Source: an uncultured Dehalococcoidia bacterium (GTDB taxonomy: Bacteria; Chloroflexota; Dehalococcoidia; Lucifugimonadales; CAJWER01). From it: a stretch of 64,000 nt of DNA. The DNA is taken from positions 23,549 to 87,548 of the forward strand of contig CAYFFO010000005.1 in assembly GCA_964342485.1 (NCBI GenBank), read 5' to 3'. This document shows positions 3,961 through 53,546 of this stretch, one piece after another; positions within the stretch are counted from its first letter, which is position 1; each line of letters starts with the position of its first letter. The notes below the pieces were generated by a model. The model was not told the origin of the DNA and ran no database searches. It was given only the letters and a program-made list of their open reading frames with translations. Made by a program: the position numbers and the translations under genes.

Positions 3961-6753
3961 TCAATATTTTCGCCAAGTGTTCCACCAGGATAATTGGTAG
4001 GGTGTTCTTTTCACATAAGTAAAACAGTGTATATTACCAGTCCATCTATGGTAATTATCCCAACTGTCAATCGATTGAGGAATCCCAGGTATAAGATCAA
4101 CAAAATTCTTTCTCATTATATTTTCGCCTGCATGATTTTTGGGACCGTAGTTTTTCCCGAAGAAAATATATTTTCCAGCAGTTTGTATATTTGTTAGTGC
4201 AGGTGCAAAAGGAAAGACTTGTTCTATAGAATTGGTTTTCGAATCAAAGGTTCCCATAAGTAGATCTGGGACTCGTATAACATCGATCTTTTCATCTATA
4301 GATTTGGAAATTGTAGAGACGACCATATTAATTTTCTTTTCGGCAGCGAAATTTAGTTGATGTAGCAATAGGTCTGTCTGGATTTCATATGCACTAATTA
4401 TTGCTGGGATTTCACTGCCTATTGTATCAAGCCAGAAACGCGTATTGTTTGCTAAAACATATTGACTTGTATGATCGGGTATTTCAAACCATTTTACTCT
4501 TGGTGGCTCACTTATGCTGTCTATTTGTCCATTTACAGAAGTAGCTGATTTTTTCGGTCCATCGTATCCCTTGTCGGCTATTTTAGTTGGGGTATTCCAC
4601 ACCTTATCAATGGACAACCATCCCGGGCCTGCAGCTGCAATTCTAGCTACCTGTCCAGCTCCTGTTCCAGCATATATCCTAATGTATTTTGCATATTCCC
4701 AAATTGGTTTTGTAAAGTCGGTATTTTCACTGTCGACTAATATGGTGTCACTACTATGTGAAGATGCGGCTAAATGAATGCCTGTACTGACTTTTCCATC
4801 TGCAAAAAATACCGCGTTCTCGTCGAGTTCATCAATTATGGTTTTAGCGCCTATAGGGTCGGGTGCAATGATAGTCCATTTTTTATTATCAGGTATTATA
4901 GAAATAATTTCATCGACATGCCCAACTCTTAGCCAGCCAGTTTCTATAGTGAAAGGTGATTGTAATTCCTGGTCTTTTAAAAAATGTAAAAGTTTTTGAC
5001 TTATAGTGTTTCCAACTACTATACGACCCAAAGGCCAAGATTTTGTTGGAGGGATAACCTCTATATTCCCACCAAAATCTCCTGCGTTTAGGCCATCATG
5101 AATTTGAAAATTTTCGAATCTGAATAGGCCTGTATTTGGCCCGATAAGGTTTGATTTAGGCCATGTTGGAGTGTCATCTTCAATTTTTTCGGTTGTTAAT
5201 TTCGAACGTGGAAGACGTAAAACGATATGAGTTTTTGGTTTCCCTGGCGCATGGGTATATCCTATTTCAATATGGTCCTGAGTCCACTGGTCGCCGCCAG
5301 TATAGTATGAATTCAAGGATACAGTGTCTTGAAGTGATAATCTGAAGTCTTCTAGACTTTGGCTTTTACCCCATATTTGCAATGCTTGTTGTGTGTTTGG
5401 TAATAATATCAATGGAGCTACTTTAAGCTGAACTCGGTCAAACCCCAGGCTAACATTACCTGGACCGGTGGCTGATAACTCTAATTCCAGAATACCATCG
5501 TATCCATCCTGGAAAGTTCCTCCATAAGCTTGAGATTGGGTATTGCGAAAGAAAAGACCTTCGATACCTAAAGTGGTATTAAATTTTCCAATAATAAGGT
5601 CTGTTATATTACTGTATTCTTCTTGTTCGCCTGGGCCTCCCCAAAAAGATTTTTCACCTGGTTCTATTTTTTGAAACACATGAACTCCTCTAATTTGATC
5701 GAGTTCAGGAGTTCTTAGAGTTACTGAAGTAAGGTCTTCCGGGTTAATACCATTAACACGAATAACAAGTTCAGTAATATCGAGGCTATCTTTTAAGCCG
5801 TTAATATAGAAATCTTCGCTTATAGGATAACCACCTTCGTCAAAGTCTATGCTATCTGGATTTCGTTTGTGGTCGGCTGAGTCATTGTCATAATTAACCA
5901 TGAAAATAGCACCACGTTGGTCTGTCCAATGGTCTTCTTTGTATTCATCCATAGTGTTATCAATAATCCCATCCCTATCACTGTCCACATCAAGATCGAG
6001 TTCAATGATCGAAAGATTTATATCGTCATGTGTTTTTCCCAATACAGATTGCATATTTAGCCTTAATACTACTTCTCTAGAATGTGCAGTTGTTTCTAAC
6101 CCTTCGATAAACAATTTATCCGGGATATGCTTGGCGTCAAAAATATAGGGTATATAAATTTGTTCCGTTTTCTCTGGATCCAGCCAAATCCTGATTTTTT
6201 CACCCCCAGATAGTGCAGATAGTTTTAGGGAAGATGAATCTGGTATTGGGTCTGCTTTTATATTGATTTCTTTCACACTAGATTGATTGCTGTTAAGGGA
6301 CAAAAATCCACCAACTGTTTCTTCTTCTTGTTCTTCTGTTCCGACGATATCGAGGTCAATGTCTATAACCATAATTTCTAAGGATTCTTTTGCCATTTCT
6401 CCTGTTGGCAACGAATATTTTAGAGTAAGAATTGAGCCGCCTTTTGAAATGGCAGTCAATGAAGTTGGACCTTCTTCTGTGGTGTCTATTCGGAGAACTT
6501 CAGGGTTGCTTGATTGCCAATCGCATTTTCCTCCGGATGGTCCCACGTGGGATTTCAGAATTTCAGTATCATCGATATTAAAAATTCTTGTTTCGAGATT
6601 AATCTGCGCAACTAGTCCGGACTGGATTGTATTGTCAGTTACTTTATCTATACAGGAGATATTGGTTTGTAAATTCTTAACCGAAGAGATACAGGAATTT
6701 CCAAAAGCGATTATTGAAAAAATCAGGAATAGTTTAATCAATATACGGATCAT
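3961..6753 (-). CDS. secreted protein-arginine deiminase (PAD, vertebrate/cyanobacterial type) homologue with N-terminal Ig-like region
   Basis: N-terminal signal MIRILIKLFLIFSIIAFGNSC. GDQWTQDHIEIGYTHAPGK resembles PAD W.QDEMEIGY. WLRVGHVDEIISIIP resembles GHVDEF (His and Asp). C-terminal GNIHCFTYVKRTP resembles G.HCGTNV.R.P, the catalytic Cys (codon at complement 4024-4026). There are also acidic Ca-binding-like DLDVDSDRDGIIDN and a Big_2-like segment with SSNPEVLRID. Confidence 0.75.
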   Translation of the reverse strand: MIRILIKLFLIFSIIAFGNSCISSVKNLQTNISCIDKVTDNTIQSGLVAQINLETRIFNIDDTEILKSHVGPSGGKCDWQSSNPEVLRIDTTEEGPTSLTAISKGGSILTLKYSLPTGEMAKESLEIMVIDIDLDIVGTEEQEEETVGGFLSLNSNQSSVKEINIKADPIPDSSSLKLSALSGGEKIRIWLDPEKTEQIYIPYIFDAKHIPDKLFIEGLETTAHSREVVLRLNMQSVLGKTHDDINLSIIELDLDVDSDRDGIIDNTMDEYKEDHWTDQRGAIFMVNYDNDSADHKRNPDSIDFDEGGYPISEDFYINGLKDSLDITELVIRVNGINPEDLTSVTLRTPELDQIRGVHVFQKIEPGEKSFWGGPGEQEEYSNITDLIIGKFNTTLGIEGLFFRNTQSQAYGGTFQDGYDGILELELSATGPGNVSLGFDRVQLKVAPLILLPNTQQALQIWGKSQSLEDFRLSLQDTVSLNSYYTGGDQWTQDHIEIGYTHAPGKPKTHIVLRLPRSKLTTEKIEDDTPTWPKSNLIGPNTGLFRFENFQIHDGLNAGDFGGNIEVIPPTKSWPLGRIVVGNTISQKLLHFLKDQELQSPFTIETGWLRVGHVDEIISIIPDNKKWTIIAPDPIGAKTIIDELDENAVFFADGKVSTGIHLAASSHSSDTILVDSENTDFTKPIWEYAKYIRIYAGTGAGQVARIAAAGPGWLSIDKVWNTPTKIADKGYDGPKKSATSVNGQIDSISEPPRVKWFEIPDHTSQYVLANNTRFWLDTIGSEIPAIISAYEIQTDLLLHQLNFAAEKKINMVVSTISKSIDEKIDVIRVPDLLMGTFDSKTNSIEQVFPFAPALTNIQTAGKYIFFGKNYGPKNHAGENIMRKNFVDLIPGIPQSIDSWDNYHRWTGNIHCFTYVKRTPYQLSWWNTWRKY

Positions 6754-10650: not shown

Positions 10651-11391
10651 ATGACTTTACCAGGCTACCAAGTTGATAGTAGAGTTTGGATGAACAGGGC
10701 TCAGCTTGAATATGAGTTGATTAAGATTAAAGAATCTCCATTGTACCAACAAACCATTTATTTTACTCCAGATTCTTACTTATCAAGTCTGGGTGATACT
10801 AGAGCGATAACTATGGTGAATCAGGTCCCCAATTTTAGAACTGGGGTCGCGCTATTTTATGGGTGCGAATCAGGTCTTGCAATACTGCCACCGTTTCCTA
10901 TTAGATCCAATCAGGAGTGTGATTTTGTATACATAGACCCACTGTTGAGTATTGTGAGAGATACCATGACTGTTGGAGTGATTTTGCTTCGGCTAGGGAT
11001 GTATGCTGTGGGCGTTATAAAAGGCGCTGAATTGCTAGTGTCTAAAACAGGTACGAGATATGTAAAGAATAGACACAGGAAAGGTGGTTCATCACAAAGA
11101 CGGTTTGAACGGAATAGGGAAAGATGGATTAAAGATCTTTTTGAGAAAGTATGTTCAGTAACTGAAGACGTCTTTAGACCTCATAATTCTGAGATTGATT
11201 ATTTTGTCATGGGAGGAGAAAAACATACTTTATCTGGTTTCTTGGAGCAGTGTAATTATATAAACCAGACTGGTATACAAATACTTGGGCGACGAGTAGA
11301 TGTGAAAAAACCAGATAGGAATAGTTTGAATGGGGTACATAAGGAAATTTTAAAAACCTTAGTCATAAAATTTGTAAAAACAGAAACATAA
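10651..11391 (+). CDS. VLRF1-type (Vms1/ANKZF1-like, eRF1-fold) domain protein, acVLRF1-like
   Basis: VGVILLRLGMYAVGVIKGAELLVSKTGTRYVKNRHRKGGSSQRRFER is collinear with the Vms1/ANKZF1 core (hhhhh.GGHFA.G...., K.F.RYT.R.K.GG.Q). The GGSSQ codons are at 11083-11097. Confidence 0.6.
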   Translation: MTLPGYQVDSRVWMNRAQLEYELIKIKESPLYQQTIYFTPDSYLSSLGDTRAITMVNQVPNFRTGVALFYGCESGLAILPPFPIRSNQECDFVYIDPLLSIVRDTMTVGVILLRLGMYAVGVIKGAELLVSKTGTRYVKNRHRKGGSSQRRFERNRERWIKDLFEKVCSVTEDVFRPHNSEIDYFVMGGEKHTLSGFLEQCNYINQTGIQILGRRVDVKKPDRNSLNGVHKEILKTLVIKFVKTET

Positions 11392-14365: not shown

Positions 14366-15730
14366 TTGTATGCAGATCGGTTACTTCCACATGATCCAGA
14401 TGCTGAAGAGGCAGTTATAGGATCAATTCTGGTAGATCCAGAATCAATAAGCAAGGTTACTCACTTTCTTAAGGGTACTGACTTTTATGTCGCTAGGAAC
14501 AGATGGTGTTTTGACGCATGTATAGCTTTGTTCGAGAGGGACGAGGCGATAAACCAAGTTTCTATTGCTCATGAGCTATCGACTATAGGACACTTAGAGG
14601 ATGTAGGAGGCACCGCCTATTTGGCTCATGCTGTTCAGGCAACGCCTACTTCTGTTCATCTTGAACATTATGGAAGGATTGTTCAAAGAACATCTGTTAT
14701 GCGCCAATTGATTTCTGCTGCCGGTGATATATCTTCAATAGGATACGACGGGGACTCCGATGTCGAAAGAGCTCTGGATCAGGCAGAAGAAATACTTTTT
14801 CGTGTTAGATCGGGTAGAGGAACACGAGACTTTATGCATATCCGGGATATTCTCGATGTGTATATGGAAGATACAGCTGCTCTGGAAAGTGACGAAGGTA
14901 GGAGTTTAGCCCCAATACCTACCGGATTTGCTAAGCTAGACGAACTTTTAGGTAATGGGTTGCAAAGATCAGATATGGTTGTAGTAGCTGCTAGACCAAG
15001 TTTAGGGAAGAGTACGTTGGCTTTCAATATTGCAAGGCATGCAGCTCAACAAGGATCGAGTGTAGGGATTTTTAGTCTTGAGATGAGTGCTGAACAGATA
15101 GCCATAAGACTTCTTTCAGGTGAAGCAAACGTAGATAGTCATAGACTTAGGATCGGCCTACTGAGTGATCAAGAGGAGAATCGAGTTTTTGATTCGATAG
15201 GATTACTTTCTGAATTACAAATATATATTGATGATACTCCGATCCAGGGTATTGTGGAAATGCGAGGTAAAACTAGGCGTCTTCAAGCAGAACGTGGTCT
15301 CGATTTATTGATCGTTGACTATTTACAATTAATGTCATCTAGTGGGAGAAGTTCGGATAATCGTGTACAGGAAATGGGTGAATTTTCTAGGTCATTAAAG
15401 GGTATAGCCAGAGATCTTGACGTACCTGTAATAGCCTGTTCTCAGCTTAGTAGAGCACCTGAGCAACGTCCTTCACATCGACCTATTCTTTCAGATTTAA
15501 GAGAAAGTGGAAGTATTGAACAGGATGCAGACGTGGTTGCATTTATATATCGCGAAGATGTATATACAAATCGAGAGGATTGGGAACGTGGTCATCCCAT
15601 GGACCCGTATCCTGAAAATGTAGCGGAACTTATAGTTGCAAAGCACCGTAATGGCCCTACGGGTACTGTCCCACTATATTTTAGAAAGGATGTAGTTCGG
15701 TTTGAAAATCTTGATCAATCAGTTACTTAG
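14366..15730 (+). CDS. dnaB: replicative DNA helicase DnaB
   Basis: LPHDPDAEEAVIGSIL, Walker A ARPSLGKST, Walker B LLIVDYLQLM, SQLSR and IVAKHRNGPTG. TTG start. No intein (454 aa). Confidence 0.9.
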   Translation: MYADRLLPHDPDAEEAVIGSILVDPESISKVTHFLKGTDFYVARNRWCFDACIALFERDEAINQVSIAHELSTIGHLEDVGGTAYLAHAVQATPTSVHLEHYGRIVQRTSVMRQLISAAGDISSIGYDGDSDVERALDQAEEILFRVRSGRGTRDFMHIRDILDVYMEDTAALESDEGRSLAPIPTGFAKLDELLGNGLQRSDMVVVAARPSLGKSTLAFNIARHAAQQGSSVGIFSLEMSAEQIAIRLLSGEANVDSHRLRIGLLSDQEENRVFDSIGLLSELQIYIDDTPIQGIVEMRGKTRRLQAERGLDLLIVDYLQLMSSSGRSSDNRVQEMGEFSRSLKGIARDLDVPVIACSQLSRAPEQRPSHRPILSDLRESGSIEQDADVVAFIYREDVYTNREDWERGHPMDPYPENVAELIVAKHRNGPTGTVPLYFRKDVVRFENLDQSVT

Positions 15731-15745
15731 AAGGATAAAGGAATA

Positions 15746-16420
15746 ATGGGTTTCTCTGGATTTCCATCTAAGGTTAAGTTTACGCCTGTGCCTAATCAAG
15801 TATTCAATCAAATTTTGGAGCCAATCCAGGATTTATCGGAATTGAAGTGTACACTCCGTATAATTTGGTTATTACATCTAAAAAAAGATTACCCAAAGTA
15901 TATTTCACACGCTGAATTGCTCGCAGATGGGGTACTTGCAAGGGGGCTATCTGACGGTATAAGCGTAGATCAGTCTATAGTAGAAAAAGCGATAGACTTG
16001 GTTGTAAAAAGGGGTACTATTATCAAGCTTAGTAAAGGAAAAGCTGATTCTACTACAACTATTTATTTCTTAAATACAGAGACTCATCGGAAACAAATTG
16101 AACAATTTAATCTTGATGAAATCGATACGAATGATCCAGCACCTTTCTCTGGTCCTATGAAGAAACCTAACATATATACTCTGTATGAGGACAACATAGG
16201 AATGCTCAATCCGATGATAGCCGAGGAACTTAAAGAAGCTGAATCACGATTTCCACAACAATGGATCGAAGATGCCGTACGTGAGTCAGTTAAAGGCAAC
16301 AAAAGAAACTGGCGATATATATTTAGCATACTTGAACGATGGGAAAGTGAAGGAAGAGACGATGGAAGATTTAGGCGAGATACTAAAACGGTTGGCTATA
16401 AAGAATTCTTCCGTAGATAG
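15746..16420 (+). CDS. DnaD-domain (replication initiation / helicase-loading organiser) protein
   Basis: The C-terminal KGNKRNWRYIFSILERWESEG matches the DnaD/DnaB_2 signature (Y...I...W). It lies immediately after dnaB. Confidence 0.55.
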   Translation: MGFSGFPSKVKFTPVPNQVFNQILEPIQDLSELKCTLRIIWLLHLKKDYPKYISHAELLADGVLARGLSDGISVDQSIVEKAIDLVVKRGTIIKLSKGKADSTTTIYFLNTETHRKQIEQFNLDEIDTNDPAPFSGPMKKPNIYTLYEDNIGMLNPMIAEELKEAESRFPQQWIEDAVRESVKGNKRNWRYIFSILERWESEGRDDGRFRRDTKTVGYKEFFRR

Positions 16421-17741
16421 ACCTTTTACAGGTACACCAGAGGATAATGGTGATATCGAACAATGTAAAAGTTGTGGTGGCCGTGGTTGGTTAGTAAAAG
16501 AAGTCCCAGTAGGACATCCTGAATTTGGACAGGTAGACGCTTGTGGATGTCAAAAACAAGACATGGAACAAGACCAATATTCCCGATTACTCACCTACAG
16601 TAATTTGGGCAGTCTAGCAAAGTTTACCTTTACAAGCATTGAATCGATAGGAGATCAAACTTCAGATAATGATGAATCTTTTCAAAGCGCTTTAGAAGTT
16701 GCTAGGGAGTATAGTGCAGATGTGTCTGGATGGTTGGTATTGATTGGTCCAAATGGATCAGGAAAAACTAGATTAGCCGCATCTATTGCCAATTCTTGTC
16801 TTGATGACGGGCAAGTTGTGTTTTTTGCTCATGTTCCTGATTTATTGGATCACCTCAGGGCGTCATTCGATCCAGCTAGTGAAATGGGATACAGCGTATT
16901 CTTTGAGCAGGTTAAAACCGCTCCTGTACTTATTTTGGATGGGCTAGGTAATCATAGTACAACTTCATGGGCAGAAGAAAAACTAGGACAAATCATAAAT
17001 CATAGATATAACGCAGAACTGCCTACTGTGATAACTACAGCGACATTGTTAGAGTCTCTAGATCCGTATATTTCTTCTAGGATTAGATCCACAGGTTTGA
17101 GTAGAATTGTTGAACTACATTCTAATGAAGAAAAATCATCAATCCAGCTTGGTAGCATAGATCATGGAATGGTGAGGCGTATGACATTGGAGAATTTTAA
17201 TATAGAAGGTAATGCGTCGAGCTTGAAAGAACAGGAAAGTCTTGGGGCAGCATTTCGCGCAGCGGAAGCTTTCGCGAATGATCCTGATGGATGGCTCATA
17301 CTTTCAGGGCAAACCGGTGTGGGTAAGACGCATCTTGCAGTAGCTATTGCAGGTACACAGATTTCAAATAATCGTCAGGTTCTATTCGCTTTCGTGCCTG
17401 AATTGATGGATTATCTTAGAGATACCTTTAATCCTAGAAGTCAAGTAAGTTATGACAATTTGTTTGAAGAAGTTAAAAATACTCCGATCTTGATCCTAGA
17501 TGATTTAGGTAAGGAACAGCGTAGTGACTGGGCTGTAGAAAAACTATATCAAATCATTGTACACAGGCATAACGTACAGCTTCCGACAGTGATTACAAGT
17601 ATGATGGATTTCAGTGATGAGCTTGATCCAATAACTTCTCGAGTGCAAGATCCATCTATTTCAGTACTAATACGGATAGAAGCCCATGATTATAGAAATA
17701 AGCAACGCAGACGAGGTAGGAGTAGATCAAAATCCAAATAA
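16362..17741 (+). CDS. tandem-duplicated DnaC/DnaI/IstB-like AAA+ protein with N-terminal zinc ribbon
   Basis: I placed the start at ATG 16362, behind GAAGGAAG, rather than the ORF-track start 16272. CKSCGGRGW...DACGC sits at about 16464-16550. Module 1 has WLVLIGPNGSGKTRLA...VLILDGLG...LPTVITT. Module 2 has WLILSGQTGVGKTHLA...ILILDDLG...LPTVITS. The C-terminal tail is basic. Confidence 0.7.
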   Translation: MEDLGEILKRLAIKNSSVDRPFTGTPEDNGDIEQCKSCGGRGWLVKEVPVGHPEFGQVDACGCQKQDMEQDQYSRLLTYSNLGSLAKFTFTSIESIGDQTSDNDESFQSALEVAREYSADVSGWLVLIGPNGSGKTRLAASIANSCLDDGQVVFFAHVPDLLDHLRASFDPASEMGYSVFFEQVKTAPVLILDGLGNHSTTSWAEEKLGQIINHRYNAELPTVITTATLLESLDPYISSRIRSTGLSRIVELHSNEEKSSIQLGSIDHGMVRRMTLENFNIEGNASSLKEQESLGAAFRAAEAFANDPDGWLILSGQTGVGKTHLAVAIAGTQISNNRQVLFAFVPELMDYLRDTFNPRSQVSYDNLFEEVKNTPILILDDLGKEQRSDWAVEKLYQIIVHRHNVQLPTVITSMMDFSDELDPITSRVQDPSISVLIRIEAHDYRNKQRRRGRSRSKSK

Positions 17742-22967: not shown

Positions 22968-24026
22968 TTAGATAACGTGTATTCGTATATCATTATCGTC
23001 TTGAGGCGGCGACAGTATCTCACCAATAATGGAGGCGGTTGATATTCTTTTTGAAGTTAGTTCTTCAATTAAGATGTCTGACTTTCTTGGGTCTACGCAC
23101 ATAAGTAATCCACCAGAAGTTTGTGCATCATTTAGGAGAAGTTTTATTTCTTTAGATATCAGATTTGTCCATACTACTTGATTTTTCGTAGACTTAAAAT
23201 TATTTACAGTTCCACCAGGAACAAGACCTTTTTGTGTCATATCAAAAACCCCTGGTAATAACGGAATATTTTTTGACGATAGTTGAGCAGATACATTACT
23301 TGTCTTTAATAGATTTAGAAGGTGACCGATCAGGCCAAATCCAGTAATATCTATACATGCATTGACTCCAATTTTTACCATAGCTTTGGCAGCTTTATCG
23401 TTCAGGGTTTTCATATGATTAACGGCTATATTGAATTCTTTTTCAGTAGATTTACCTTGTTGTGCTGCTGTTGTGGCAATGCCTGTACCAATTGGTTTGG
23501 TAAGTATGATTTTATCTCCTGCTTTGGCTCCTAAATTGGTTATTTGCTTTCCTGGCTTGATTATTCCAGTAACTGCCATTCCAAATTTCGGTTCTTTATC
23601 TTTTATTGTGTGACCACCTACCACAAGGAGATTTGCTTCAGTAGCTTTAGAAGCAGCACCTTTCAATATTTCAGTTAGGATTGTATTGGGTAAATCATCC
23701 GGGAAACCTACGATATTTACTCCAATAAGAGGGGTTGCGCCCATGGAGTAAATGTCTGAAACAGCATTTGCTACAGCTATTTCCCCAAACGTGAATGGAT
23801 CGTCAACTATTGGAGGGAAAAAATCTACAGTCTGTACTAAAGCAATTTCTTCCGTCAACTTGTACACAGCAGCATCATCCTTGTTGGAAATACCTACCAA
23901 CAAGTTGGGATGATTAATCTCAGGTAACTGGCTCAGAACCTGAGCCAGGTCATCTTGACTAATTTTAGATGCTCAACCAGAACAATTAGCTAATGAGGTA
24001 AGTTTTATATCTTTAATTTGGTCCAA
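22968..24026 (-). CDS. selD: selenide, water dikinase SelD with in-frame UGA (predicted selenocysteine) at the catalytic Cys position
   Basis: The ORF track begins at 23903. The same frame continues upstream through a single TGA to a TTG at 24024-24026: MDQIKDIKLTSLANCSG-U-ASKISQDDLAQVLSQLPEINHPNLLVGISNKDDAAVYKL. This is collinear with the E. coli SelD N-terminus. The total of 352 codons is the normal SelD length. Confidence 0.85.
23928..23948 (-). promoter_or_regulatory. SECIS-like hairpin downstream of the selD UGA
   Basis: The mRNA reads CUGGCUCAG-GUU-CUGAGCCAG, a perfect 9-bp stem with GU in the apical loop. The stem starts 24 nt after UGA. Confidence 0.6.
23973..23975 (-). other. recoded UGA (Sec) codon in selD
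   Basis: The plus strand reads tca, which is TGA in the selD frame, 24 codons upstream of the ORF-track start. It lies three residues before the conserved Lys of the G-rich loop. Confidence 0.75.
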
Positions 24027-24966: not shown

Positions 24967-26202
24967 TTGAATCCGTATTCGACATCTAATATTAGGGATA
25001 AAAAGAAGGATATTTTCTGGATGGTATTAATGGCCATGATGTTTTTTATTCTTCTTTTGCCAATATCTAGTTACACAGCAGCTGTACCGATTTTGATACA
25101 TGAATGGGATTTAAATAATGTCCAAACTGGTGCAATTTTTTCAGCATATTTAATCGGTTACGTAATTTCAGCTATTTTAATAATACCCCTGACTGATCGG
25201 ATATCTTCCGGACTCGTATTGATTTTGTCCGCAATGCTATTTACTCTTTCACATTTGGTATTTGCTTTGTGGGTGGACAATATACATACAGCATTTGTTG
25301 TAAGGATGATTGGTGGTGTCGGTCTAGTGGGAGTTTACATGCCGGGTGTACGTCTTATCGTAGATCGTTTCCCAGGAAAAATGAGGGGTATATCTGTAGG
25401 GATATTTGTAACCGCACAATATTTTGCTAATAGTTGCTCGTTATTAATAAGTTCCTCATTGATTGGAACTTATGCTTGGAGGGATGCATATTTAATAATA
25501 GCTTTCATATCATCTATAGGAGTTTTATTAGCCTTGATTTTATTTAGTAAGACTATAAATAGAAGTTCTACTGAAGAGTCGGGTAAGTTCGACGTTAAAG
25601 TTTTACGAAATCCAAGTGTCAGGTATTTAATTTTAGGATATTCATTACATGCACTAAATCTTTTTTCTGTTCGAGTTTGGCTACCAATTTTCTTAGTGTC
25701 AGTGTTAATCAGTCAGGGTATAAGTGAACATGATGCAACAATTGAAGGATCTACATTGGGAGGGATAGCTTTACTCGCAGGTTCAATAGGTCCACTTATT
25801 GGAGGGACTATGTCGGATCGGTTTGGAAGAGCAGTCTCAGCTTCATATATTTTAACTTTAAGCGCTTTATGTGCTTTCATATTGGGATGGTTGGTTAATT
25901 CACCGATTTATATAATTTTAATAGTTGGGTCGATTTATAGTTGGTCGGTTTCTGCCGATTCGGCAATTTATTCTACAGGTATTACTGAAGTATCACCTGG
26001 AAACAAAATTGGATCATCGATGGCTCTACAGGCTACTTTTGGGTTAATTGGAGGTGTTATAGGACCAATTATTGTTGGTGGGATATTGGATTTTGCACCT
26101 ACAAACACTTATTGGTTGTCAGGTTTTTCTTCATTAGGATTTGTTGCAATTATTGGAATTCTTGCTATGCAGAGGATGAGATATTTGAATCAACATGACT
26201 GA
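24967..26202 (+). CDS. MFS transporter
   Basis: About 12 predicted hydrophobic segments, with loop motifs LTDRISSG and MSDRFGR. TTG start behind GGAGG. Confidence 0.8.
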   Translation: MNPYSTSNIRDKKKDIFWMVLMAMMFFILLLPISSYTAAVPILIHEWDLNNVQTGAIFSAYLIGYVISAILIIPLTDRISSGLVLILSAMLFTLSHLVFALWVDNIHTAFVVRMIGGVGLVGVYMPGVRLIVDRFPGKMRGISVGIFVTAQYFANSCSLLISSSLIGTYAWRDAYLIIAFISSIGVLLALILFSKTINRSSTEESGKFDVKVLRNPSVRYLILGYSLHALNLFSVRVWLPIFLVSVLISQGISEHDATIEGSTLGGIALLAGSIGPLIGGTMSDRFGRAVSASYILTLSALCAFILGWLVNSPIYIILIVGSIYSWSVSADSAIYSTGITEVSPGNKIGSSMALQATFGLIGGVIGPIIVGGILDFAPTNTYWLSGFSSLGFVAIIGILAMQRMRYLNQHD

Positions 26203-26238
26203 TGAGGTAGTTTTAAATATAGTAAGGAGGTGATAGTT

Positions 26239-26670
26239 GTGACTAGCGTTAAGGTAAAGAGTCTGGGTAAACTCCAACAACTTGTTTTAAGTGGAGACCA
26301 TTTTTTTATAGCAGATAGTGATCATGAAGGAGATGGGCAATTTGCTCCTAATCCGTATGAGATGCTATTGGCTTCTATAGCCACCTGAACAGCTATGACT
26401 ATTCTCCTGTATTCTCGGAGGAAACAATGGAGTTTGAAAAGCATAGAGGTTGAATCGAACCATCATAGGATAGTTAGAAATGGTAAGGGTAGTAATATTA
26501 GTGATGGGTCAAATCATACTGAGGAAATCAGAAACAAAATTACTATTGTTGGGGATTTATCAAGTGAACAAGAAGATAGGTTATTAAAGGTAGCAGATAA
26601 GTGTCCTGTTCACAGGACCATTCAATCTACCCCAATGATATCTAATCATATTGAAACAATAACTAATTAG
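26239..26670 (+). CDS. OsmC/Ohr-family peroxiredoxin-like protein with in-frame UGA (predicted selenocysteine) at the first conserved Cys
   Basis: GTG 26239 lies 8 nt after AGGAGG (26225-26230). The frame runs 49 sense codons, then TGA 26386-26388, then the ORF-track ORF 26395-26670. Joined product: ...[30 protein letters not shown]...LKVADKCPVHRTI. It is 143 codons, the usual OsmC size. Confidence 0.65.
26386..26388 (+). other. candidate recoded UGA (Sec) codon in the OsmC-like gene
   Basis: It is the only stop between the GTG with its Shine-Dalgarno site at 26239 and the stop at 26668-26670. It sits where the OsmC family has ..ELL.A.L..C. Confidence 0.55.
26402..26422 (+). promoter_or_regulatory. 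weak candidate SECIS-like hairpin after the OsmC UGA
   Basis: UUCUCC-UGUAUUCUC-GGAGGA: 6 bp including one G-U pair, with a 9-nt loop containing GU, 16 nt after the UGA. Much weaker than the selD hairpin. Confidence 0.25.
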
Positions 26671-26680
26671 GAGTGAGAAA

Positions 26681-27463
26681 ATGAGACAAAATGTACCGAT
26701 ATTAGTTTATCATCATGTTTATAAAGATTCATTTTTAGAGTCCATAAATACAAAGCATGATAGTGCTACGGGTATGATAAAAGAATCTGAATTTAGGCTA
26801 CATTTGAATTATATTATGGAAAATAACTGGTCAGTAATTTCTACTAATCAACTTTCAGATTGGATTGAAGGTGAAGTTGAAATTCCAGAAAAATCTGTGG
26901 TGTTACACTTTGACAATGGTTGGCTCGATACTTTCACTATAGCAATGCCAATTGTTAGAGAATTGGGAATCACTGCAACTTGTTATGTAATAAGTGATGC
27001 AACAGAAGCCGCTTCAAAAGGACTTGACGCCAATATTCGTACTTCTACAGAAGGATCTGTAAAAAAAAGATGTATCGATTGGAAACAGACTAATCTGTTA
27101 TTGGAAATGGGGTGGGAAATAGGAGCTCATACAGCTACACATCCTAAATTAGTGGATCTGTTAAATGAGCATGGAGAAGAGGGAGTGATGTTAGAGATAG
27201 AAAAATCTAATAAATCTTATTTGGATAACCTGGGATTTATACCTAGACATTTTGCTTATCCTAGTGGTTCGAATAACATCCATACTGACAGACTACTAGG
27301 CGATGTTTATCAAACACTTAGACTTTGGGAGTTTAATAATCCGCCAACCTGGTCATTCACTAACGGTAAGACATCATCACATGGATTAAAAAGCCAGAAT
27401 CTAGATAGCACGGTTTCTTTTTCTGATTTTGTTAGGATTTTTCACGAATCGGAAGTTTCATAG
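26681..27463 (+). CDS. polysaccharide deacetylase (NodB-homology) family protein
   Basis: VLHFDNGWLDTF (variant of TFDDG) and GAHTATHP (HxxxH). Starts 10 nt after the OsmC stop, behind GGAG. Confidence 0.7.
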   Translation: MRQNVPILVYHHVYKDSFLESINTKHDSATGMIKESEFRLHLNYIMENNWSVISTNQLSDWIEGEVEIPEKSVVLHFDNGWLDTFTIAMPIVRELGITATCYVISDATEAASKGLDANIRTSTEGSVKKRCIDWKQTNLLLEMGWEIGAHTATHPKLVDLLNEHGEEGVMLEIEKSNKSYLDNLGFIPRHFAYPSGSNNIHTDRLLGDVYQTLRLWEFNNPPTWSFTNGKTSSHGLKSQNLDSTVSFSDFVRIFHESEVS

Positions 27464-27490: not shown

Positions 27491-27981
27491 CTATAGGTCT
27501 TTATAATCGATCCATGCGCGGAGTATGTCATAGTCGTGTTTAAATGGGAGTTTAGGTAAATCGATAAACCTAAACAAGTTTACTTCAATAGCGTCGAACC
27601 CTGCCTTAAGTGTTCCACCAGTAATATTTAAAGAGTAGGCAATTAGTATTACAGGATCATTTTTTTCAGAGTAAACACCAAGTAATTTATCAACTTGTGC
27701 ATTTAAACCTGTCTCTTCTCTAAATTCTCGTATAGTGGCATCTTTAATATTTTCACCTCTGTCTACAAAGCCTGCTGGGAGGACCATTTCCCTTGATAAG
27801 GTGGATTGGATCTTTTTACAAGAACGATTTCGTTTTGCATCGAAGCTACTGATAGAACAGCGATCTTTGGGTCAATAAATTTGATAGAATCACATTGTTG
27901 GCAATAGGGTCTGTGAATACCTTCTTTGTATTTGGTAGACAAAACAAAACCGCATTGATCACAAAATCGCAGATTTTTCAC
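27491..27981 (-). pseudogene. NUDIX hydrolase with N-terminal Cys4 zinc ribbon, interrupted by a 1-nt frameshift
   Basis: The two overlapping ORFs (27763-27981 and 27491-27787) join as ...SNPPYQGKW/VLPAGFVDRGENIKDATIREFREETGL. This restores a complete NUDIX box Gx5Ex7REUxEExGU only if one extra base is read at about 27783-27786. Confidence 0.7.
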
Positions 27982-30392: not shown

Positions 30393-32621
30393 ATGACTAA
30401 ACAGGTTTTAGATTCTTCTTTACGGCGGAGTAATATAGGTAGCAGACCAATCAGACATGATGGAGTTCCTAAAGTCACGGGAGAGGCTTGTTTTGGGGCT
30501 GATATATCTTTGCCGGGAATGATATATGCTAAAGTTCTCAGAAGCCCGTATGCTCATGCGATTATTAAGTCTGTTGATGTTACTTTAGCTGAAGCTTCCA
30601 AAGACGTAATAGCTATTGTAACTGGCAGCGACCTATATATTGAAGAAAAAGCGAATTCTGCCAATGAATTTCAAAAAAATAATATCTTGGCTAGAAATAG
30701 AGTACTTTATAAAGGTCATCCAGTTGCAGCTATAGCCGCAAATAATTTACATGCAGCTGAAGAAGCGCTTTCGCTGATTAAAGTGGAATACGAACCCTTA
30801 CCTTTTGTGACGGATGTGAATGATGCTATGTCATCTGAAGCACCAATTTTACATGAAGCGTTACAGTCAAATCGAAATACTTCGAATATTGTTGATAGTG
30901 AAATTTTTGAACATGGAAACATAAGGACAGGTTTTGAAAATGCGGATGTTATCGTTGAGAGACAATTCAAAACTAGGTCAGTCCATCAAGGATATATAGA
31001 ACCTCAAAATGCCACTGCTGTGTGGGAACAAGATGGCAGACTAACGATTTGGTGCAGTAGCCAGGGACATTTTGGTATAAGAGATAATGTCGCTGCTATT
31101 TTAGGATTGGATGTGTCAAATATTAAAGTTGTTCCTATGGAAATAGGAGGTGGTTTTGGAGGTAAGATATCGCCTTATCTGGAGCCCCTTGCGGCTTTGT
31201 TATCTAAGAAAAGTGGCAGGCCTGTTAAGATGGTTATGTCAAGAAACGAAGTGTTTGAATCTACTGGGCCTGCAGCAGGCGGTAATATTAGGGTAAAACT
31301 AGGTGCAAATAGTTTAGGACGTATTGTTGCAGCTGAAGCCCACTGTTTTTACGAGGCAGGTGCATATCCTGGAGCACCTTTGGCTGGAGCTGCAGCAGGA
31401 ATTTTTGCACCATATAGCATTGATAATGTAAGAATTGAGGCGTATGACGTTGTAGATAATAAACCAAAGACTTCTGCATACCGTGCTCCAGGCGCGACAG
31501 TTGCAGTTTTTGCTGCTGAAAACGTGATTGATGAAATTGCACATCAACTCAATCTGGATCCTATGGAATTCAGGCTTATTAACGTAGCCGAGGAAGGCTC
31601 TCGCCGGGCTGATGGTGTGGTAAATGTTCGTATTGGTGCAAAGCAAGTTATGGATGCAGTTCGAAAGCATTCCCATTACTCATCTAAGCTCAAGGGAAAA
31701 TTTGTTGGAAGGGGAGTAGCTATGGGGTTTTGCAGAAACAACACGGGCATGGCCTGCGTAGTTGCTAATGTATTGGATGATGGTAAAGTCAGCCTGGTTG
31801 AAGGGTCTGTAGATATAGGTGGGAGTCGCACATCGGTTAGTCAGCAATTTGCGGAAGTTCTAGGGATATCAGTAGAGGATGTCATCCCACAAGTTGCTGA
31901 CACGGACACTGTGGGATACACATCAGTGACTGGAGGCAGTGGAGTAGCTTATAAGTCTGGATGGGCTGCATTTGAAGCAGCTCATGATGTTAAACGTCAG
32001 TTATTGGAACGAGTCGCTTTGTTGTGGGAAACATCTATTGAAAACTTGGAATATCATGACGCTGTAGTACGACATAAATTTGATATAGAAATGACAATTT
32101 CTTTCCGGGAAATCACCTCTTTATTGTCAGAAACTGGAGGACCAGTTGTAGGTAGAGCGAATATAAGTCCAGGAGGTCTGCATGGGTCTTATTCCGCAAA
32201 TATAGTTGATGTTGAGGTAGATATGGAAACTGGTAAGGTAGAAATTATTCGGGTAACTGCCTTCCAAGATGCTGGGACTGCAGTACACCCTGGATATGTT
32301 GAAGGACAAATACAAGGAGGTACTGTACAGGGGATTGGATGGGCACTGAATGAAGGTTACTTTATGGGCATAAAAGGCGAGATGATGAATCCAACATTTT
32401 TGGACTACAGAATGCCAACTTCGTATGATGTTCCAATGATAGACCCGGTAATTCTTGAAGTTCCAAGTAGCTCACATCCTTTTGGTGTCCGGGGAGTTGG
32501 AGAAGCGAATATAGTACCACCACCTGCAGCTATAGCGAATGCTATATATGATGCAATCGGTGTGAGAATGTATGAGCTTCCTATATTACCTGAAAATGTG
32601 CTTGAGGCATTAGAATCTTAA
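30393..32621 (+). CDS. xanthine dehydrogenase / aldehyde oxidase / CoxL-family molybdopterin-binding large subunit
   Basis: GEACFGADI..., YAHAIIKSVD, EIGGGFGGK and the C-terminal GVGEANIVPPPAAIANAIYDA. Size 742 aa. No adjacent FAD or 2Fe-2S subunit ORFs. Confidence 0.85.
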   Translation: MTKQVLDSSLRRSNIGSRPIRHDGVPKVTGEACFGADISLPGMIYAKVLRSPYAHAIIKSVDVTLAEASKDVIAIVTGSDLYIEEKANSANEFQKNNILARNRVLYKGHPVAAIAANNLHAAEEALSLIKVEYEPLPFVTDVNDAMSSEAPILHEALQSNRNTSNIVDSEIFEHGNIRTGFENADVIVERQFKTRSVHQGYIEPQNATAVWEQDGRLTIWCSSQGHFGIRDNVAAILGLDVSNIKVVPMEIGGGFGGKISPYLEPLAALLSKKSGRPVKMVMSRNEVFESTGPAAGGNIRVKLGANSLGRIVAAEAHCFYEAGAYPGAPLAGAAAGIFAPYSIDNVRIEAYDVVDNKPKTSAYRAPGATVAVFAAENVIDEIAHQLNLDPMEFRLINVAEEGSRRADGVVNVRIGAKQVMDAVRKHSHYSSKLKGKFVGRGVAMGFCRNNTGMACVVANVLDDGKVSLVEGSVDIGGSRTSVSQQFAEVLGISVEDVIPQVADTDTVGYTSVTGGSGVAYKSGWAAFEAAHDVKRQLLERVALLWETSIENLEYHDAVVRHKFDIEMTISFREITSLLSETGGPVVGRANISPGGLHGSYSANIVDVEVDMETGKVEIIRVTAFQDAGTAVHPGYVEGQIQGGTVQGIGWALNEGYFMGIKGEMMNPTFLDYRMPTSYDVPMIDPVILEVPSSSHPFGVRGVGEANIVPPPAAIANAIYDAIGVRMYELPILPENVLEALES

Positions 32622-50405: not shown

Positions 50406-53400
50406 GTGCTAGCATTGATTCCAACAAATATTCAAGACATCTATAAATCACTTGATTGGCGTTCGATAGGTCCATATAGGGCGGGAAGAGTTGTTGCGGT
50501 TGCGGGTGACCCAGTCAACAAACAGGTATTCTACTTTGGATCTGTTGGAGGAGGACTTTGGAAAACAGCAGACGGGGGCACATACTGGCAAAACATTTCT
50601 GATGGATATTTCAATACTGCTTCTGTGGGAGCACTGGATGTTTCAAAATCTGATCCAAACGTTATATATGCAGGCATGGGAGAAGCATGTATACGAGTAG
50701 ATGTAACTCATGGAGATGGTGTGTATCGATCTGTTAATTCAGGTGAATCATGGTCTCACCTGGGACTTGAAGATACCAGGCATATTTCGAGATTACGAAT
50801 TCATCCTGATGATCCAGATACTGTGTATGTTGGGGCACTTGGAAATGCATTTGCTCCTAATAAGCAAAGAGGAGTTTTCCGTTCTTACGATGGGGGGCAA
50901 AACTGGACAAATGTATTGTATAAAAGTGAATTTGCAGGTATCGCAGATTTATCAATGGATCCTAATAATCCACGTATTTTGTTTGCATCTATGTGGCAAG
51001 CACAGCGATCGTTTTGGTACATGAATAGCGGTGGACCTGACAGTGGATTATATAGGAGTTTTGACTCGGGAGATACCTGGATTAACCTTTCTTCACGGAC
51101 CGGTCTTCCAAAAGGTGTTTTAGGCAGGATAGGAATCGCCTCTTCAGGTGCGAAGCCTGGTCGTATTTGGGCTTTAATTGAAGCAGAAGACGGTGGTTTG
51201 TTTCGGTCGGATAATGGTGGGGAATCTTGGGAAAGAATAAACGATAGCGAAGATATTCGTGCCCGATCTTGGTATTACACACACATCTTTGCAGATCCTA
51301 AAGATGAAGATACAGTTTATATACTTGCTCCAGATATGTTGCGTTCTATTGATGGGGGGAATACTTTTACGAAGGTTAGTATGCCTCATTCTGATCAACA
51401 TGATCTTTGGATCGATCCTTCTGATACATTAAGAATGATTCAAGGAAACGATGGTGGTGCCTGTGTTAGCTTCAATGGGGGAGATAGTTGGAGTTCGACC
51501 TATAATCAACCGACTTCACAATTTTACTCTGTCGCAGTTGATAATCAGGTTCCATACCGGATTTATGGGGCCCAACAGGATAATAGTGCGGTAAGTATAC
51601 CAAGCAGATCTTCAAAAGGAATGATTCCCTGGGATGATTGTTACACTATTGGACTTTCTGAAAGCGGGAAGGTTGCTGTAAATCCTGTAAATTCAAATAT
51701 AGTTTATTCCTCATATCCCGGTGGCACACTCATGAGATATGATCATAATAGTGGCCAAGTAAGAGTTATCATGGTTTGGCCTGAGTATTACCAAAATTCC
51801 CCACCCAAAAATAATAAATATAGATTTGGATGGGAATTTCCGATAGTAATATCCACTCATGATCCAAATATCCTTTATACCACTGGCAATATTGTATTCA
51901 AATCGATTGATGAAGGTACTACATGGGAACCGATTAGTCCTGATTTGACAAGAAATGATGTTACGAAACAGGAATTATCTGGTCCTATAACATCTGAGGG
52001 TCCTTGGGCTGAGATTTACTGCACTATATACGCTTTTGCAGAGTCTCCAATAACTCCTGGGTTATTTTGGGCTGGTACAGATGATGGTTTGGTTTATGTT
52101 TCTCAAGATGGTGGTGATAATTGGGATGAGGTTACTCCAAATGGTTTGCCAGAATGGACACTAATTAGTGTAATTGAACCTTCTCATTATGATGATGGAG
52201 TTGCCTATATAGCCTGCACTGGATACAAGCTAGGCGATACAGAAGCTTATATATATAAAACTTCTGATTGTGGTAAAAATTGGGAACTAGTAATAGATGG
52301 AATAAGGGAAAATGATTTTGTTCGGGTTATTCGAGAGGATCCTGAGAAGGAAGGGTTACTGTATATAGGTTCTGAGACAGGTATTTATATATCTGATAAT
52401 AACGCAAAGTACTGGCATAGCTTCCAGCTAAATTTACCTGTTTCACCAATATACGATATTGCTATTAAAGATTCAGATTTAATTGTTGCAACACATGGCA
52501 GGTCTTTTTGGATACTTGATGATATCAGTCCAATTCGTAAATTTGGTATCGAAGGATTTTTACCAACTACTCAGTTATCAAAACCAAGGAATACTATTAG
52601 GTTAGTGATGCAGGCAGGATCTATTATTGAGTCTTGGCCCGGTAAGCATTACATGAGCAATATTTTGGGAGCTCCTGCTGCCTGGCTTGAGACAAAGTCA
52701 GTAGCCGGGAAAACAGTAAAGACTGGATTGACGGCTGGAATGAATCCCGAAGAAGGAGTTGCTATAGATTTTGTGCTCGATAAACAAGAGGACGATAAAG
52801 TAGTGGTAGAAATTCGGGATGAAAATAACCAGGTGGTTAGAAGATTCTCATCAACTAATCCAAGCAAAGACAAATTACTTTGTAAACCGGGATTAAATCG
52901 ATTTTACTGGGATCTTAGATACACTGATTACCATGAATTGCCTGATGAGGCTGGAGGCGCTAGTCCTTTTGGAGCGAAAATAATGGCGCCTTTGGTAGAA
53001 CCTGGCAAATATAAAATCCTATTAATATGTGGCAGTAATAAGTTGGAAGAATCTTTTGAGATATTACTAGATCCTAGATCAGAAGCATCAAATGAAGATA
53101 TAAAAAAACAGGTGGACTTACAGAAGCGTATCGGTGATAAGTATCAAGAAACAACAGAGATAGTGTTACAAATCAGAAGATTAAAGAAGCAACTTACTGA
53201 ATGGGAAAATAAAATCACCAAAATAGGTGAACAGCCAGAGTTTTCTGAAAAATCTACGAATATTCAATCCAACCTATTGGATATAGAAAATGAGATTGTC
53301 CCATTTCGATCAGCTGGACCTCAGCCTTTGGGTATACCAGTCGGTTTATATGCAAAGCTGAAAGAACTTTCAGGCGTAGTGGGAAGTGCCGACTCTATTC

Positions 53401-53546
53401 CAACGATGTCTTCTTATCAATTATTTGATGATCTTTCAAATCGGTTAGAGACCCAATTTGAATTGTACAAAGCAATTATAGAGGATCAAATGCCAACCTT
53501 TACTGAGAAGTTGAAAAGGGCAAATATACCATATATTGCGTACTAA
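50406..53546 (+). CDS. large BNR/Asp-box repeat (sortilin/VPS10-like double beta-propeller) protein
   Basis: At least ten Asp-box motifs (S/T-x-D-x-G-x-x-W): TADGGTYW, SVNSGESW, SYDGGQNW, SFDSGDTW, SDNGGESW, SFNGGDSW, SIDEGTTW, SQDGGDNW, TSDCGKNW. GTG start. No obvious signal peptide. Confidence 0.7.
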   Translation: MLALIPTNIQDIYKSLDWRSIGPYRAGRVVAVAGDPVNKQVFYFGSVGGGLWKTADGGTYWQNISDGYFNTASVGALDVSKSDPNVIYAGMGEACIRVDVTHGDGVYRSVNSGESWSHLGLEDTRHISRLRIHPDDPDTVYVGALGNAFAPNKQRGVFRSYDGGQNWTNVLYKSEFAGIADLSMDPNNPRILFASMWQAQRSFWYMNSGGPDSGLYRSFDSGDTWINLSSRTGLPKGVLGRIGIASSGAKPGRIWALIEAEDGGLFRSDNGGESWERINDSEDIRARSWYYTHIFADPKDEDTVYILAPDMLRSIDGGNTFTKVSMPHSDQHDLWIDPSDTLRMIQGNDGGACVSFNGGDSWSSTYNQPTSQFYSVAVDNQVPYRIYGAQQDNSAVSIPSRSSKGMIPWDDCYTIGLSESGKVAVNPVNSNIVYSSYPGGTLMRYDHNSGQVRVIMVWPEYYQNSPPKNNKYRFGWEFPIVISTHDPNILYTTGNIVFKSIDEGTTWEPISPDLTRNDVTKQELSGPITSEGPWAEIYCTIYAFAESPITPGLFWAGTDDGLVYVSQDGGDNWDEVTPNGLPEWTLISVIEPSHYDDGVAYIACTGYKLGDTEAYIYKTSDCGKNWELVIDGIRENDFVRVIREDPEKEGLLYIGSETGIYISDNNAKYWHSFQLNLPVSPIYDIAIKDSDLIVATHGRSFWILDDISPIRKFGIEGFLPTTQLSKPRNTIRLVMQAGSIIESWPGKHYMSNILGAPAAWLETKSVAGKTVKTGLTAGMNPEEGVAIDFVLDKQEDDKVVVEIRDENNQVVRRFSSTNPSKDKLLCKPGLNRFYWDLRYTDYHELPDEAGGASPFGAKIMAPLVEPGKYKILLICGSNKLEESFEILLDPRSEASNEDIKKQVDLQKRIGDKYQETTEIVLQIRRLKKQLTEWENKITKIGEQPEFSEKSTNIQSNLLDIENEIVPFRSAGPQPLGIPVGLYAKLKELSGVVGSADSIPTMSSYQLFDDLSNRLETQFELYKAIIEDQMPTFTEKLKRANIPYIAY

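Follow-up and report, generated by a model that had tools for sequence, protein, structure and literature searches.

A predicted OsmC-family selenoprotein encoded near a UGA-containing selD gene in a Dehalococcoidia contig

Described OsmC families and the new locus

An OsmC-like selenoprotein was predicted in 2005 from the Sargasso Sea by Zhang, Fomenko and Gladyshev, in the form of three sequences of COG1765 with the motif UxxT, where U stands for selenocysteine (Sec) (PMC1088965). The same protein appeared again in the Global Ocean Sampling (GOS) data, as 5 Sec-containing and 161 Cys-containing sequences (PMC2398784), and it is the only PF02566 entry in the table of a 2026 review (PMC13188914). 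The canonical two-Cys organic hydroperoxide reductases, E. coli OsmC and Ohr, use Cys; the two Cys residues of OsmC domains fused to esterases are the counterparts of Cys59 and Cys125 in E. coli OsmC (PMC5113044). The present analysis concerns an OsmC-family gene with an in-frame UGA codon in a 64-kb stretch of DNA from an uncultured Dehalococcoidia bacterium (64,000 nucleotides (nt) of contig CAYFFO010000005.1), referred to throughout as the window. This UGA is most probably decoded as Sec in one 143-residue, stand-alone OsmC-fold thiol oxidoreductase, and a probability of roughly 0.87 is assigned to that reading. The coordinates of all features are collected in Table 1.

An earlier note on this DNA, made from the letters alone, had mentioned that OsmC-like selenoproteins have been predicted from marine metagenomes. 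The statement is correct (PMC1088965), but the published proteins form a different OsmC subfamily. They correspond to the NCBIfam model NF041052, "OsmC-related (seleno)protein", which has a cutoff of 95 bits. The Sargasso representative AACY01145085, taken from the supplement of the paper (GIGF-U-LLTQLKRYA...AKQG-C-FAE), scores 157 bits against this model, whereas the window protein reaches 37 bits, and its orthologues and nearest Cys forms 36.5-54 bits. A BLASTP comparison of the window protein with AACY01145085 gives E = 3.3, and only profile comparison with hhalign relates the two families (17 % identity, 86 % probability), with their Sec/Cys columns aligned. Because of the sub-cutoff score, the BLASTP result and a relation confined to the profile level, the window gene lies outside the catalogued family. 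Membership in the published OsmC-like selenoprotein family was accordingly rejected, and the motif of the window protein is not UxxT.

The two families are nevertheless alike in several respects. Both have the OsmC fold, both carry the UGA at the homologous first Cys (IAT-C-TAMT in the window family and IGF-C-LLTQ in the Sargasso family), both retain the second Cys, and both come from marine bacteria and have been described by computational prediction only. They differ in the residues that follow the Sec, namely U-L-L-T there and U-T-A-M-T, with Met at position +3, in the window protein. The sequences of their hairpins also differ.

The nearest solved structure is 9wo1, which is found at 6e-23 by phmmer with the single sequence and at 7.8e-47 with the family profile. 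It is a 400-residue chain named "osmotically inducible protein C", with the OsmC domain at approximately residues 264-398. Other OsmC, Ohr and YhfA structures match the window family with E values of 1e-6 or worse, and PDB entry 1ukk matches the family profile with E = 0.005. Judged by sequence, the window protein falls within the subfamily that comprises the esterase-fused OsmC domains, represented by 9wo1, its closest solved relative, with which it shares the motifs LGA-C-TAMT and ADK-C-PVH. However, 9wo1 has Cys and not Sec in the first motif and carries its OsmC domain as part of a fusion with an alpha/beta-hydrolase. The window protein is instead a stand-alone protein of 143 residues with its own Shine-Dalgarno sequence and start codon, and the gene upstream of it encodes a transporter of the major facilitator superfamily (MFS); no fusion is present.

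With E. coli OsmC and Ohr, the window protein shares the Pfam family and the same two conserved Cys columns, although the similarity is remote. The more specific subfamily models give no assignment. TIGR03562 (OsmC peroxiredoxin subfamily) is not reported for the window protein and gives a Cys-form homologue (P0012) 20 bits against a cutoff of 85.8, while TIGR03563 (SACOL1771 subfamily) gives the window protein 24.3 bits against a cutoff of 166.

The UGA column and its conservation

The joined reading frame opens at GTG 26239, runs through 49 sense codons to a single TGA and continues through 93 further sense codons. The mechanical list of open reading frames (ORFs) presents it as two separate pieces, 26230-26388 (52 residues) and 26395-26670 (91 residues). 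The ribosome-binding site, start codon, 49 codons and TGA described in the earlier note were all confirmed by reading the sequence, and its joined translation of 143 residues was reproduced exactly. One small correction concerns the stop codon of the gene, which is the TAG at 26668-26670. In the alignment with an orthologue of 52 % identity (L010), the GTG falls on the ATG start codon.

For profile searches, U was replaced by Cys in the joined product. The product is a member of the OsmC/Ohr superfamily, matching Pfam OsmC (PF02566) at 7.3e-16 with 58.9 bits against a cutoff of 27.5, and the match extends over residues 31-133, or profile positions 1-96 of 100. In the phmmer alignment with 9wo1, the UGA faces the Cys of LGA-C-TAMTLRMY, and the second Cys is aligned as ADK-C-PVHRT with ADK-C-PVHKT. 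With the family profile, the UGA column coincides with the first conserved Cys in 2pn2, 1vla, 3cje and 2opl, and the second Cys with the C-P-V or C-F-L motifs of the same structures. Since the phmmer alignment with 9wo1 and the profile-structure alignments agree, the alignments put the UGA in the first of the two OsmC active-site Cys columns, with the second Cys (Cys122) retained. The earlier assignment of the UGA to the first conserved Cys is thus supported by the Pfam alignment and by five PDB alignments, and the second Cys, which had been located in KCPV, is aligned with that of 9wo1 and 2pn2.

The column was then followed through related sequences. The C-terminal 91 residues found 797 homologues in an exhaustive HMMER search. 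All 30 distinct orthologous genes, which come from independent metagenomes, have TGA at the Cys column, and none has TAA or TAG. These Sec-form genes lie on contigs of 38-66 % GC and range down to approximately 37 % identity with the window protein. They include seven contigs at 78-96 % identity, all with TGA at the column, and four clusters at 41-52 % identity in which short proteins begin at the same Met and the DNA has TGA in every case; one of these orthologues has the same neighbouring genes, on a contig of 1.5 Mb. The best full-length homologues have Cys at the column in 119 of 119 cases. Orthologues had been proposed as a means of asking whether Cys or UGA occupies this column, and the answer is uniform on both sides. 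Retention of TGA in 30 independent gene sequences also excludes a miscalled TGT or TGC.

A metagenome scan based on peptide context gave the same result. The pattern, P-Y-[EQ]-x-L-L-x-x-[LIVM]-[GA]-T-TGA-T-A-M-T, contains only the peptide context and not the hairpin; it found 23 loci, all genuine family members, with TGA in 23 of 23. In a collection of 5.8 billion sequences, the only close proteins are two fragments of 93 residues, and their contigs, from Tara and other marine assemblies, carry a 49-residue ORF, a TGA, six bases and an ATG. The gene order in contigs of close relatives is MFS transporter, OsmC, polysaccharide deacetylase and NUDIX.

The nearest named Cys-form homologues are from Dehalococcoidia, Anaerolineales, Ardenticatenaceae, Tepidiformaceae and Kouleothrix. 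Taken with the marine assemblies of the close relatives and with a VLRF1 domain encoded elsewhere in the window, they make a marine Chloroflexota lineage the likely source. One Cys form (P0020) shares an identical 11-residue peptide, and the genome-contig scans found a single distant Cys-form locus (L008, Flavobacteriaceae, 41 %). A quick neighbour-joining tree without bootstrap, built from 28 Sec and 184 Cys forms, groups the former in one clade of 30 tips that contains two Cys forms. The tree suggests a single origin of Sec in this OsmC subfamily, a result that is provisional because the Sec set was gathered with a motif filter.

The region ahead of the UGA behaves as coding sequence. For the 45 codons that precede it, the ratio of nonsynonymous to synonymous substitution rates (dN/dS) is 0.05-0.20, and these codons are therefore translated in this frame. 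The upstream 49 codons are also homologous to OsmC N-termini, in agreement with the alignment to 9wo1. In the window, TGA ends 12 of 52 long ORFs, from which it follows that the standard genetic code is in use; global reassignment of UGA (codes 4 and 25) is ruled out by the same count. Across the 64 kb there are only two coding in-frame TGAs, one in the OsmC gene and one in selD.

Not every protein that starts at the Met three codons past the Cys column is a Sec form. The possibility that all 38 cluster representatives of this type are Sec forms was rejected, and 38 is an upper bound; the counts given above include only loci confirmed at the DNA level. Two distant representatives (P0025 and P0041) have TGC upstream and are cut off by a contig end or a frameshift, so they are not Sec forms. 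Two other metagenomic orthologues (L016 and L036) contain frameshifts shortly after the UGA region and represent sequencing errors or decaying copies.

Stem-loop and selenium context

A SECIS-like (selenocysteine insertion sequence) stem-loop with two helices lies immediately 3' of the UGA. In the lower stem, 26393-26396 pairs with 26427-26430, which sets Ala-Met codons against x-Trp-(Pro) codons, and an internal loop follows. The upper stem has 6 base pairs (bp), formed in the window by 26402-26407 (UUCUCC) with 26417-26422 (GGAGGA) and in most other orthologues by UCCUCC with GGAGGA. It closes an apical loop of 9 nt at 26408-26416, UGUAUUCUC, with G at loop position 2, which begins 19 nt after the UGA. 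The consensus of this loop across orthologues is UGUAYNNNC. The two-helix stem-loop or a variant form of it is present in the minimum free energy (MFE) fold of the window sequence and of 24 of 26 distinct orthologue sequences. The cells of the stem pair in 86 % of cases, compared with 34-55 % when partners are slid, and in most of the GC-rich orthologues the hairpin has a z-score of approximately -2 to -4.

The strongest RNA evidence is conservation at synonymous sites. At other conserved Leu, Arg, Gly, Ala, Val, Pro, Thr and Ser sites, codon entropy is 1.1-2.4 bits. The positions that make up the two arms of the upper stem are far more uniform: Leu+6 is CTC in 25 of 25 genes (0.00 bits), Leu+7 is CTG in 28 of 30 (0.42 bits), Arg+10 is CGG in 26 of 27 (0.23 bits) and Arg+11 is AGG in 24 of 30 (0.85 bits). 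AGG is retained at Arg+11 even in contigs of 65 % GC. Three of the stem codons are rare in the 38 %-GC genome (CTC 5.7 %, CTG 8.1 %, CGG 7.0 %), and the joint probability of the stem codons under the codon usage of the window itself is 1e-5. Cys-form homologues with near-identical peptides have CTC-ATG ... CGG-CGC or AAA-CTC ... CAG-AGA at these positions, without such complementarity. Furthermore, the synonymous rate (dS) in the 24 codons after the UGA is approximately half of the upstream dS. The hairpin is under constraint at the RNA level. This evidence is one of conservation and not of compensation, and covariation is not claimed, because its measures are not clearly above shuffled and slid controls.

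Synonymous conservation is also seen on the other side of the UGA. The codon directly before it (Thr-1, 26383-26385) is ACC in 29 of 30 genes (0.21 bits), although the choice of Thr codon is free at other sites, a sign that the 5' context of the Sec codon may be under selection.

A variant group of four orthologues (L024, L026, L029 and L037) encodes T-L-R/E-L-Y-A-E/D/R-R in the stem codons, approximately nt 16-34 after the UGA. There, a stem of 3-7 bp (GGC/GCC or GAGC/GCUC) closes a UGUAY loop of 5 nt, with the spacing from the UGA unchanged. The change between GAG/GCU in this group and AGG/GCC looks compensatory.

The element resembles the E. coli fdhF-type SECIS in being a stem-loop within the coding region just 3' of the UGA, with G (as GU) in the apical loop (PMC1088965). 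It differs in its unrelated sequence, in the size of its loop (9 nt in the window, 5 nt in the variant group) and in its very low stability in an AT-rich lineage, and its binding by SelB is putative. A bacterial SECIS is recognised as a stem-loop that directly follows the UGA and has a small apical loop containing G, and the window element has this form; its covariation is not significant and its local z-score is approximately 0. The earlier note had spoken of a weak hairpin, UUCUCC/GGAGGA with GU in the loop. This hairpin is present, it is as weak as described, and it is the conserved element.

The second coding in-frame TGA of the window lies in selD, the gene for selenophosphate synthetase, as the earlier note had pointed out. 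Its probable start is TTG 24026, approximately 2.2 kb from the OsmC start, and the ORF track would give its last 311 codons only. The UGA falls within N-C-S-G-U-A-S-K and is aligned with Cys17 of E. coli SelD (3u0o); the column is also Cys in chain 2yye, a selenide water dikinase. A hairpin downstream of it forms a perfect 9-bp stem with a GUU loop (-19.3 kcal/mol, z = -2.0), and both the UGA and the hairpin recur in the selD of a sister contig (L001). UGA must be decoded as Sec in any organism that needs Sec for its own selenophosphate synthetase.

Elsewhere in the window, 30393-32621 (+) encodes a large subunit of a molybdopterin-binding hydroxylase of the xanthine dehydrogenase/CoxL family. 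Some molybdenum hydroxylases use a SelD-dependent selenium cofactor, and this gene could therefore be relevant to selenium use via SelD.

By analogy with E. coli fdhF, Sec insertion would rely on a SelB·GTP·Sec-tRNA(Sec) complex tethered by the mRNA stem-loop, which lies inside the coding sequence and is made of the codons for I-L-L and R-R-K. Tethering would deliver Sec to a ribosome with the UGA in its A site, and the selenium donor would be made by the Sec-containing SelD encoded nearby. In the resulting protein, Sec50 would stand in for the nucleophile, the first Cys of the OsmC active site, and the selenenic acid or selenenylsulfide would be resolved by Cys122. The likely chemistry would be hydroperoxide reduction or a related two-electron redox step.

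Alternative readings and genomic surroundings

Several observations weigh against decoding of the UGA as Sec or limit what can be said of the product. The window hairpin is thermodynamically unremarkable (-7.7 to -9 kcal/mol, z from -0.4 to +0.1), and the UUCUCC/GGAGGA hairpin on its own is no better than shuffled sequence (z of approximately 0). Covariation is weak, as only 2 pairs change on both sides, a result matched in 65 of 500 shuffles, and RNAalifold yields no consensus structure from the alignment of 26 sequences. Part of the stem conservation is at the protein level, because the stem codons encode the conserved LLY and RRK. The genes selA, selB and tRNA-Sec were not found within the 64-kb window or beside the orthologues, and no tRNA-Sec is present in 17 orthologous loci. 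The base-level quality of the window is imperfect, since the nearby NUDIX gene is frameshifted. Finally, Jensen et al. found no peroxidase activity of the fused OsmC domain of EstRM on H2O2 or cumene hydroperoxide and described its function as enigmatic (PMC5113044). The word "peroxidatic", which the earlier note had applied to the Cys replaced by the UGA, consequently holds by homology only, while the placement at the first conserved Cys column stands.

The simplest alternative treats the UGA as a genuine stop, arising either from a nonsense mutation in a pseudogene or from a sequencing or assembly error. The window is not free of errors or decay, as the frameshifted NUDIX gene demonstrates, and this account would fit with a window hairpin no stabler than shuffled sequence and with the fact that gene callers split the gene everywhere. 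A degenerating or misread gene would, however, hardly place TGA at an identical column in 30 genes from independent samples and assemblers, to the exclusion of TAA and TAG, with a dN/dS of 0.05-0.20 upstream of the stop and the stop exactly on the catalytic Cys column. Conservation of the UGA has already effectively refuted this explanation, which is hardly credible. The preference of the earlier note for Sec decoding over a nonsense mutation is thus upheld by the 30 orthologues, by purifying selection upstream and by the Sec-containing selD nearby. A different possibility is a true split gene, whose products, a 49-residue peptide and a separate 91-residue protein started at ATG 26395, may associate non-covalently and lack the first active-site residue. 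Each piece is conserved at the protein level, and an ATG is conserved 6 nt after the UGA in every orthologue. The Met that it encodes is invariant in the Cys-form homologues too (C-T-A-M-T), so that ATG 26395 is no dedicated start codon, and the sequence has no Shine-Dalgarno motif ahead of it. Moreover, such a split would remove exactly the nucleophile, and it leaves unexplained the use of TGA only, the frozen synonymous sites of the hairpin at SECIS distance and the nearby Sec-containing selD. It is regarded as very improbable.

Readthrough without Sec would also yield the joined protein. In this case, the UGA would be read by near-cognate Trp or Cys insertion, or by Cys carried on tRNA-Sec when selenium is scarce, and the hairpin would act as a readthrough or pausing signal. 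The Sec machinery can insert Cys at UGA under selenium limitation, and the weakness of the local hairpin and the absence of tRNA-Sec, SelA and SelB from the window are in line with such an account. Trp at the nucleophile position would nevertheless inactivate the enzyme, and a UGA at the catalytic Cys of selD is only sensible if Sec decoding works. With Cys at the column in all full-length homologues, the OsmC gene forms a classical Sec/Cys pair, and the geometry of its hairpin, with a small apical loop, a G and proximity to the UGA, fits a bacterial SECIS (PMC1088965). Readthrough of this kind is therefore considered quite improbable, and decoding as Sec is preferred.

If the UGA is decoded as Sec, the gene may belong to a second selenoprotein lineage of the OsmC superfamily, in which Sec was gained separately from the U-L-L-T family, which is centred on Chloroflexota and which is absent from catalogues and from the NCBI selenoprotein models. 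This proposition is held with somewhat better than even confidence. It would mean that the lineage is routinely mis-called as ORFs of 49 and 91 residues. The alternation of Sec and Cys would identify the first Cys as the catalytic redox nucleophile of the esterase-associated OsmC subfamily, and the "missing" peroxidase activity of the subfamily would then be due to a wrong substrate or reductant and not to a dead domain. Among the computational signs of a catalytic redox cysteine, a natural Sec/Cys pair is one of the best, and at the level of sequence the substitution argues for the first Cys as the redox nucleophile in this subfamily. The finding extends a known pattern and overturns nothing, as the prediction of Sec at the equivalent site in another OsmC subfamily dates from 2005.

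For annotation, the consequences are practical. Every contig examined shows the window gene or its Sec-form orthologue as two short ORFs, and the error will keep propagating because NF041052 does not catch the Sec-form orthologues. A dedicated model together with a SECIS profile would mend it. A selenoprotein and a Sec-containing selD would be added to a marine Chloroflexota-like lineage, in which the SECIS appears to be maintained by codon choice even in a 38 %-GC genome with a barely stable hairpin.

Table 1. Positions of the OsmC-family gene, its signals, selD and the flanking genes in the window.
Feature	Position	Strand	Description	Basis
OsmC-family gene, predicted selenoprotein	26239..26670	+	143 codons including one UGA; GTG start, TAG stop	Translation, Pfam, PDB match
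Shine-Dalgarno sequence	26225..26230	+	AGGAGG, 8 nt ahead of the GTG start	Sequence read; kept in close orthologues
In-frame UGA, predicted to be read as Sec	26386..26388	+	At the first conserved Cys column, that of the nucleophile	
TGT codon of the second conserved Cys (KCPV)	26602..26604	+	Presumed resolving Cys	Invariant C122-P123 in the family alignment
SECIS-like two-helix stem-loop	26393..26430	+		MFE folds, pairing fraction, synonymous-site conservation
selD (selenophosphate synthetase)	22968..24026	-	Itself with UGA at 23973-23975	NCBIfam TIGR00476, 7.8e-111
selD SECIS hairpin	23928..23948	-	CUGGCUCAG-GUU-CUGAGCCAG; starts 24 nt after the selD UGA	
MFS transporter gene	24967..26202	+	Conserved upstream neighbour, 36-nt gap	Pfam MFS_1, 1.5e-35
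Polysaccharide deacetylase gene	26681..27463	+	Conserved downstream neighbour, 10-nt gap	Pfam Polysacc_deac_1, 3e-16

The flanking genes recur in related contigs. The MFS transporter is also found upstream in L001, L009/L010 and L011, and the polysaccharide deacetylase downstream in L002 and L009/L010; the latter gene is probably co-transcribed with the OsmC gene. The NUDIX gene that follows (27491-27981, -) is interrupted by a frameshift near 27780. One frame matches residues 1-67 of its orthologue in L002 and another matches residues 44-163, and intact orthologues have 162-168 residues. The broken gene is either a pseudogene or the result of an indel error.

Other genes of the window were noted in passing. 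At 14366-17741 (+), a DnaB helicase gene ending in TAG is followed in the same frame by an ORF with a DnaD/DnaB_2 domain (15746-16420), which is overlapped by an IstB/DnaC-like ATPase ORF (16272-17741). This arrangement is probably a replication-loader operon and not recoding. A 930-residue protein at 3961-6753 (-) contains a eukaryote-type protein-arginine deiminase (PAD) domain (PF03068, 2e-48), which is uncommon in bacteria. The ORF at 10651-11391 (+) has the release-factor-like domain VLRF1 of Actinobacteria and Chloroflexi (PF18859, 1.8e-24), and a Sortilin/Vps10-repeat protein of 1046 residues is encoded at 50406-53546 (+).

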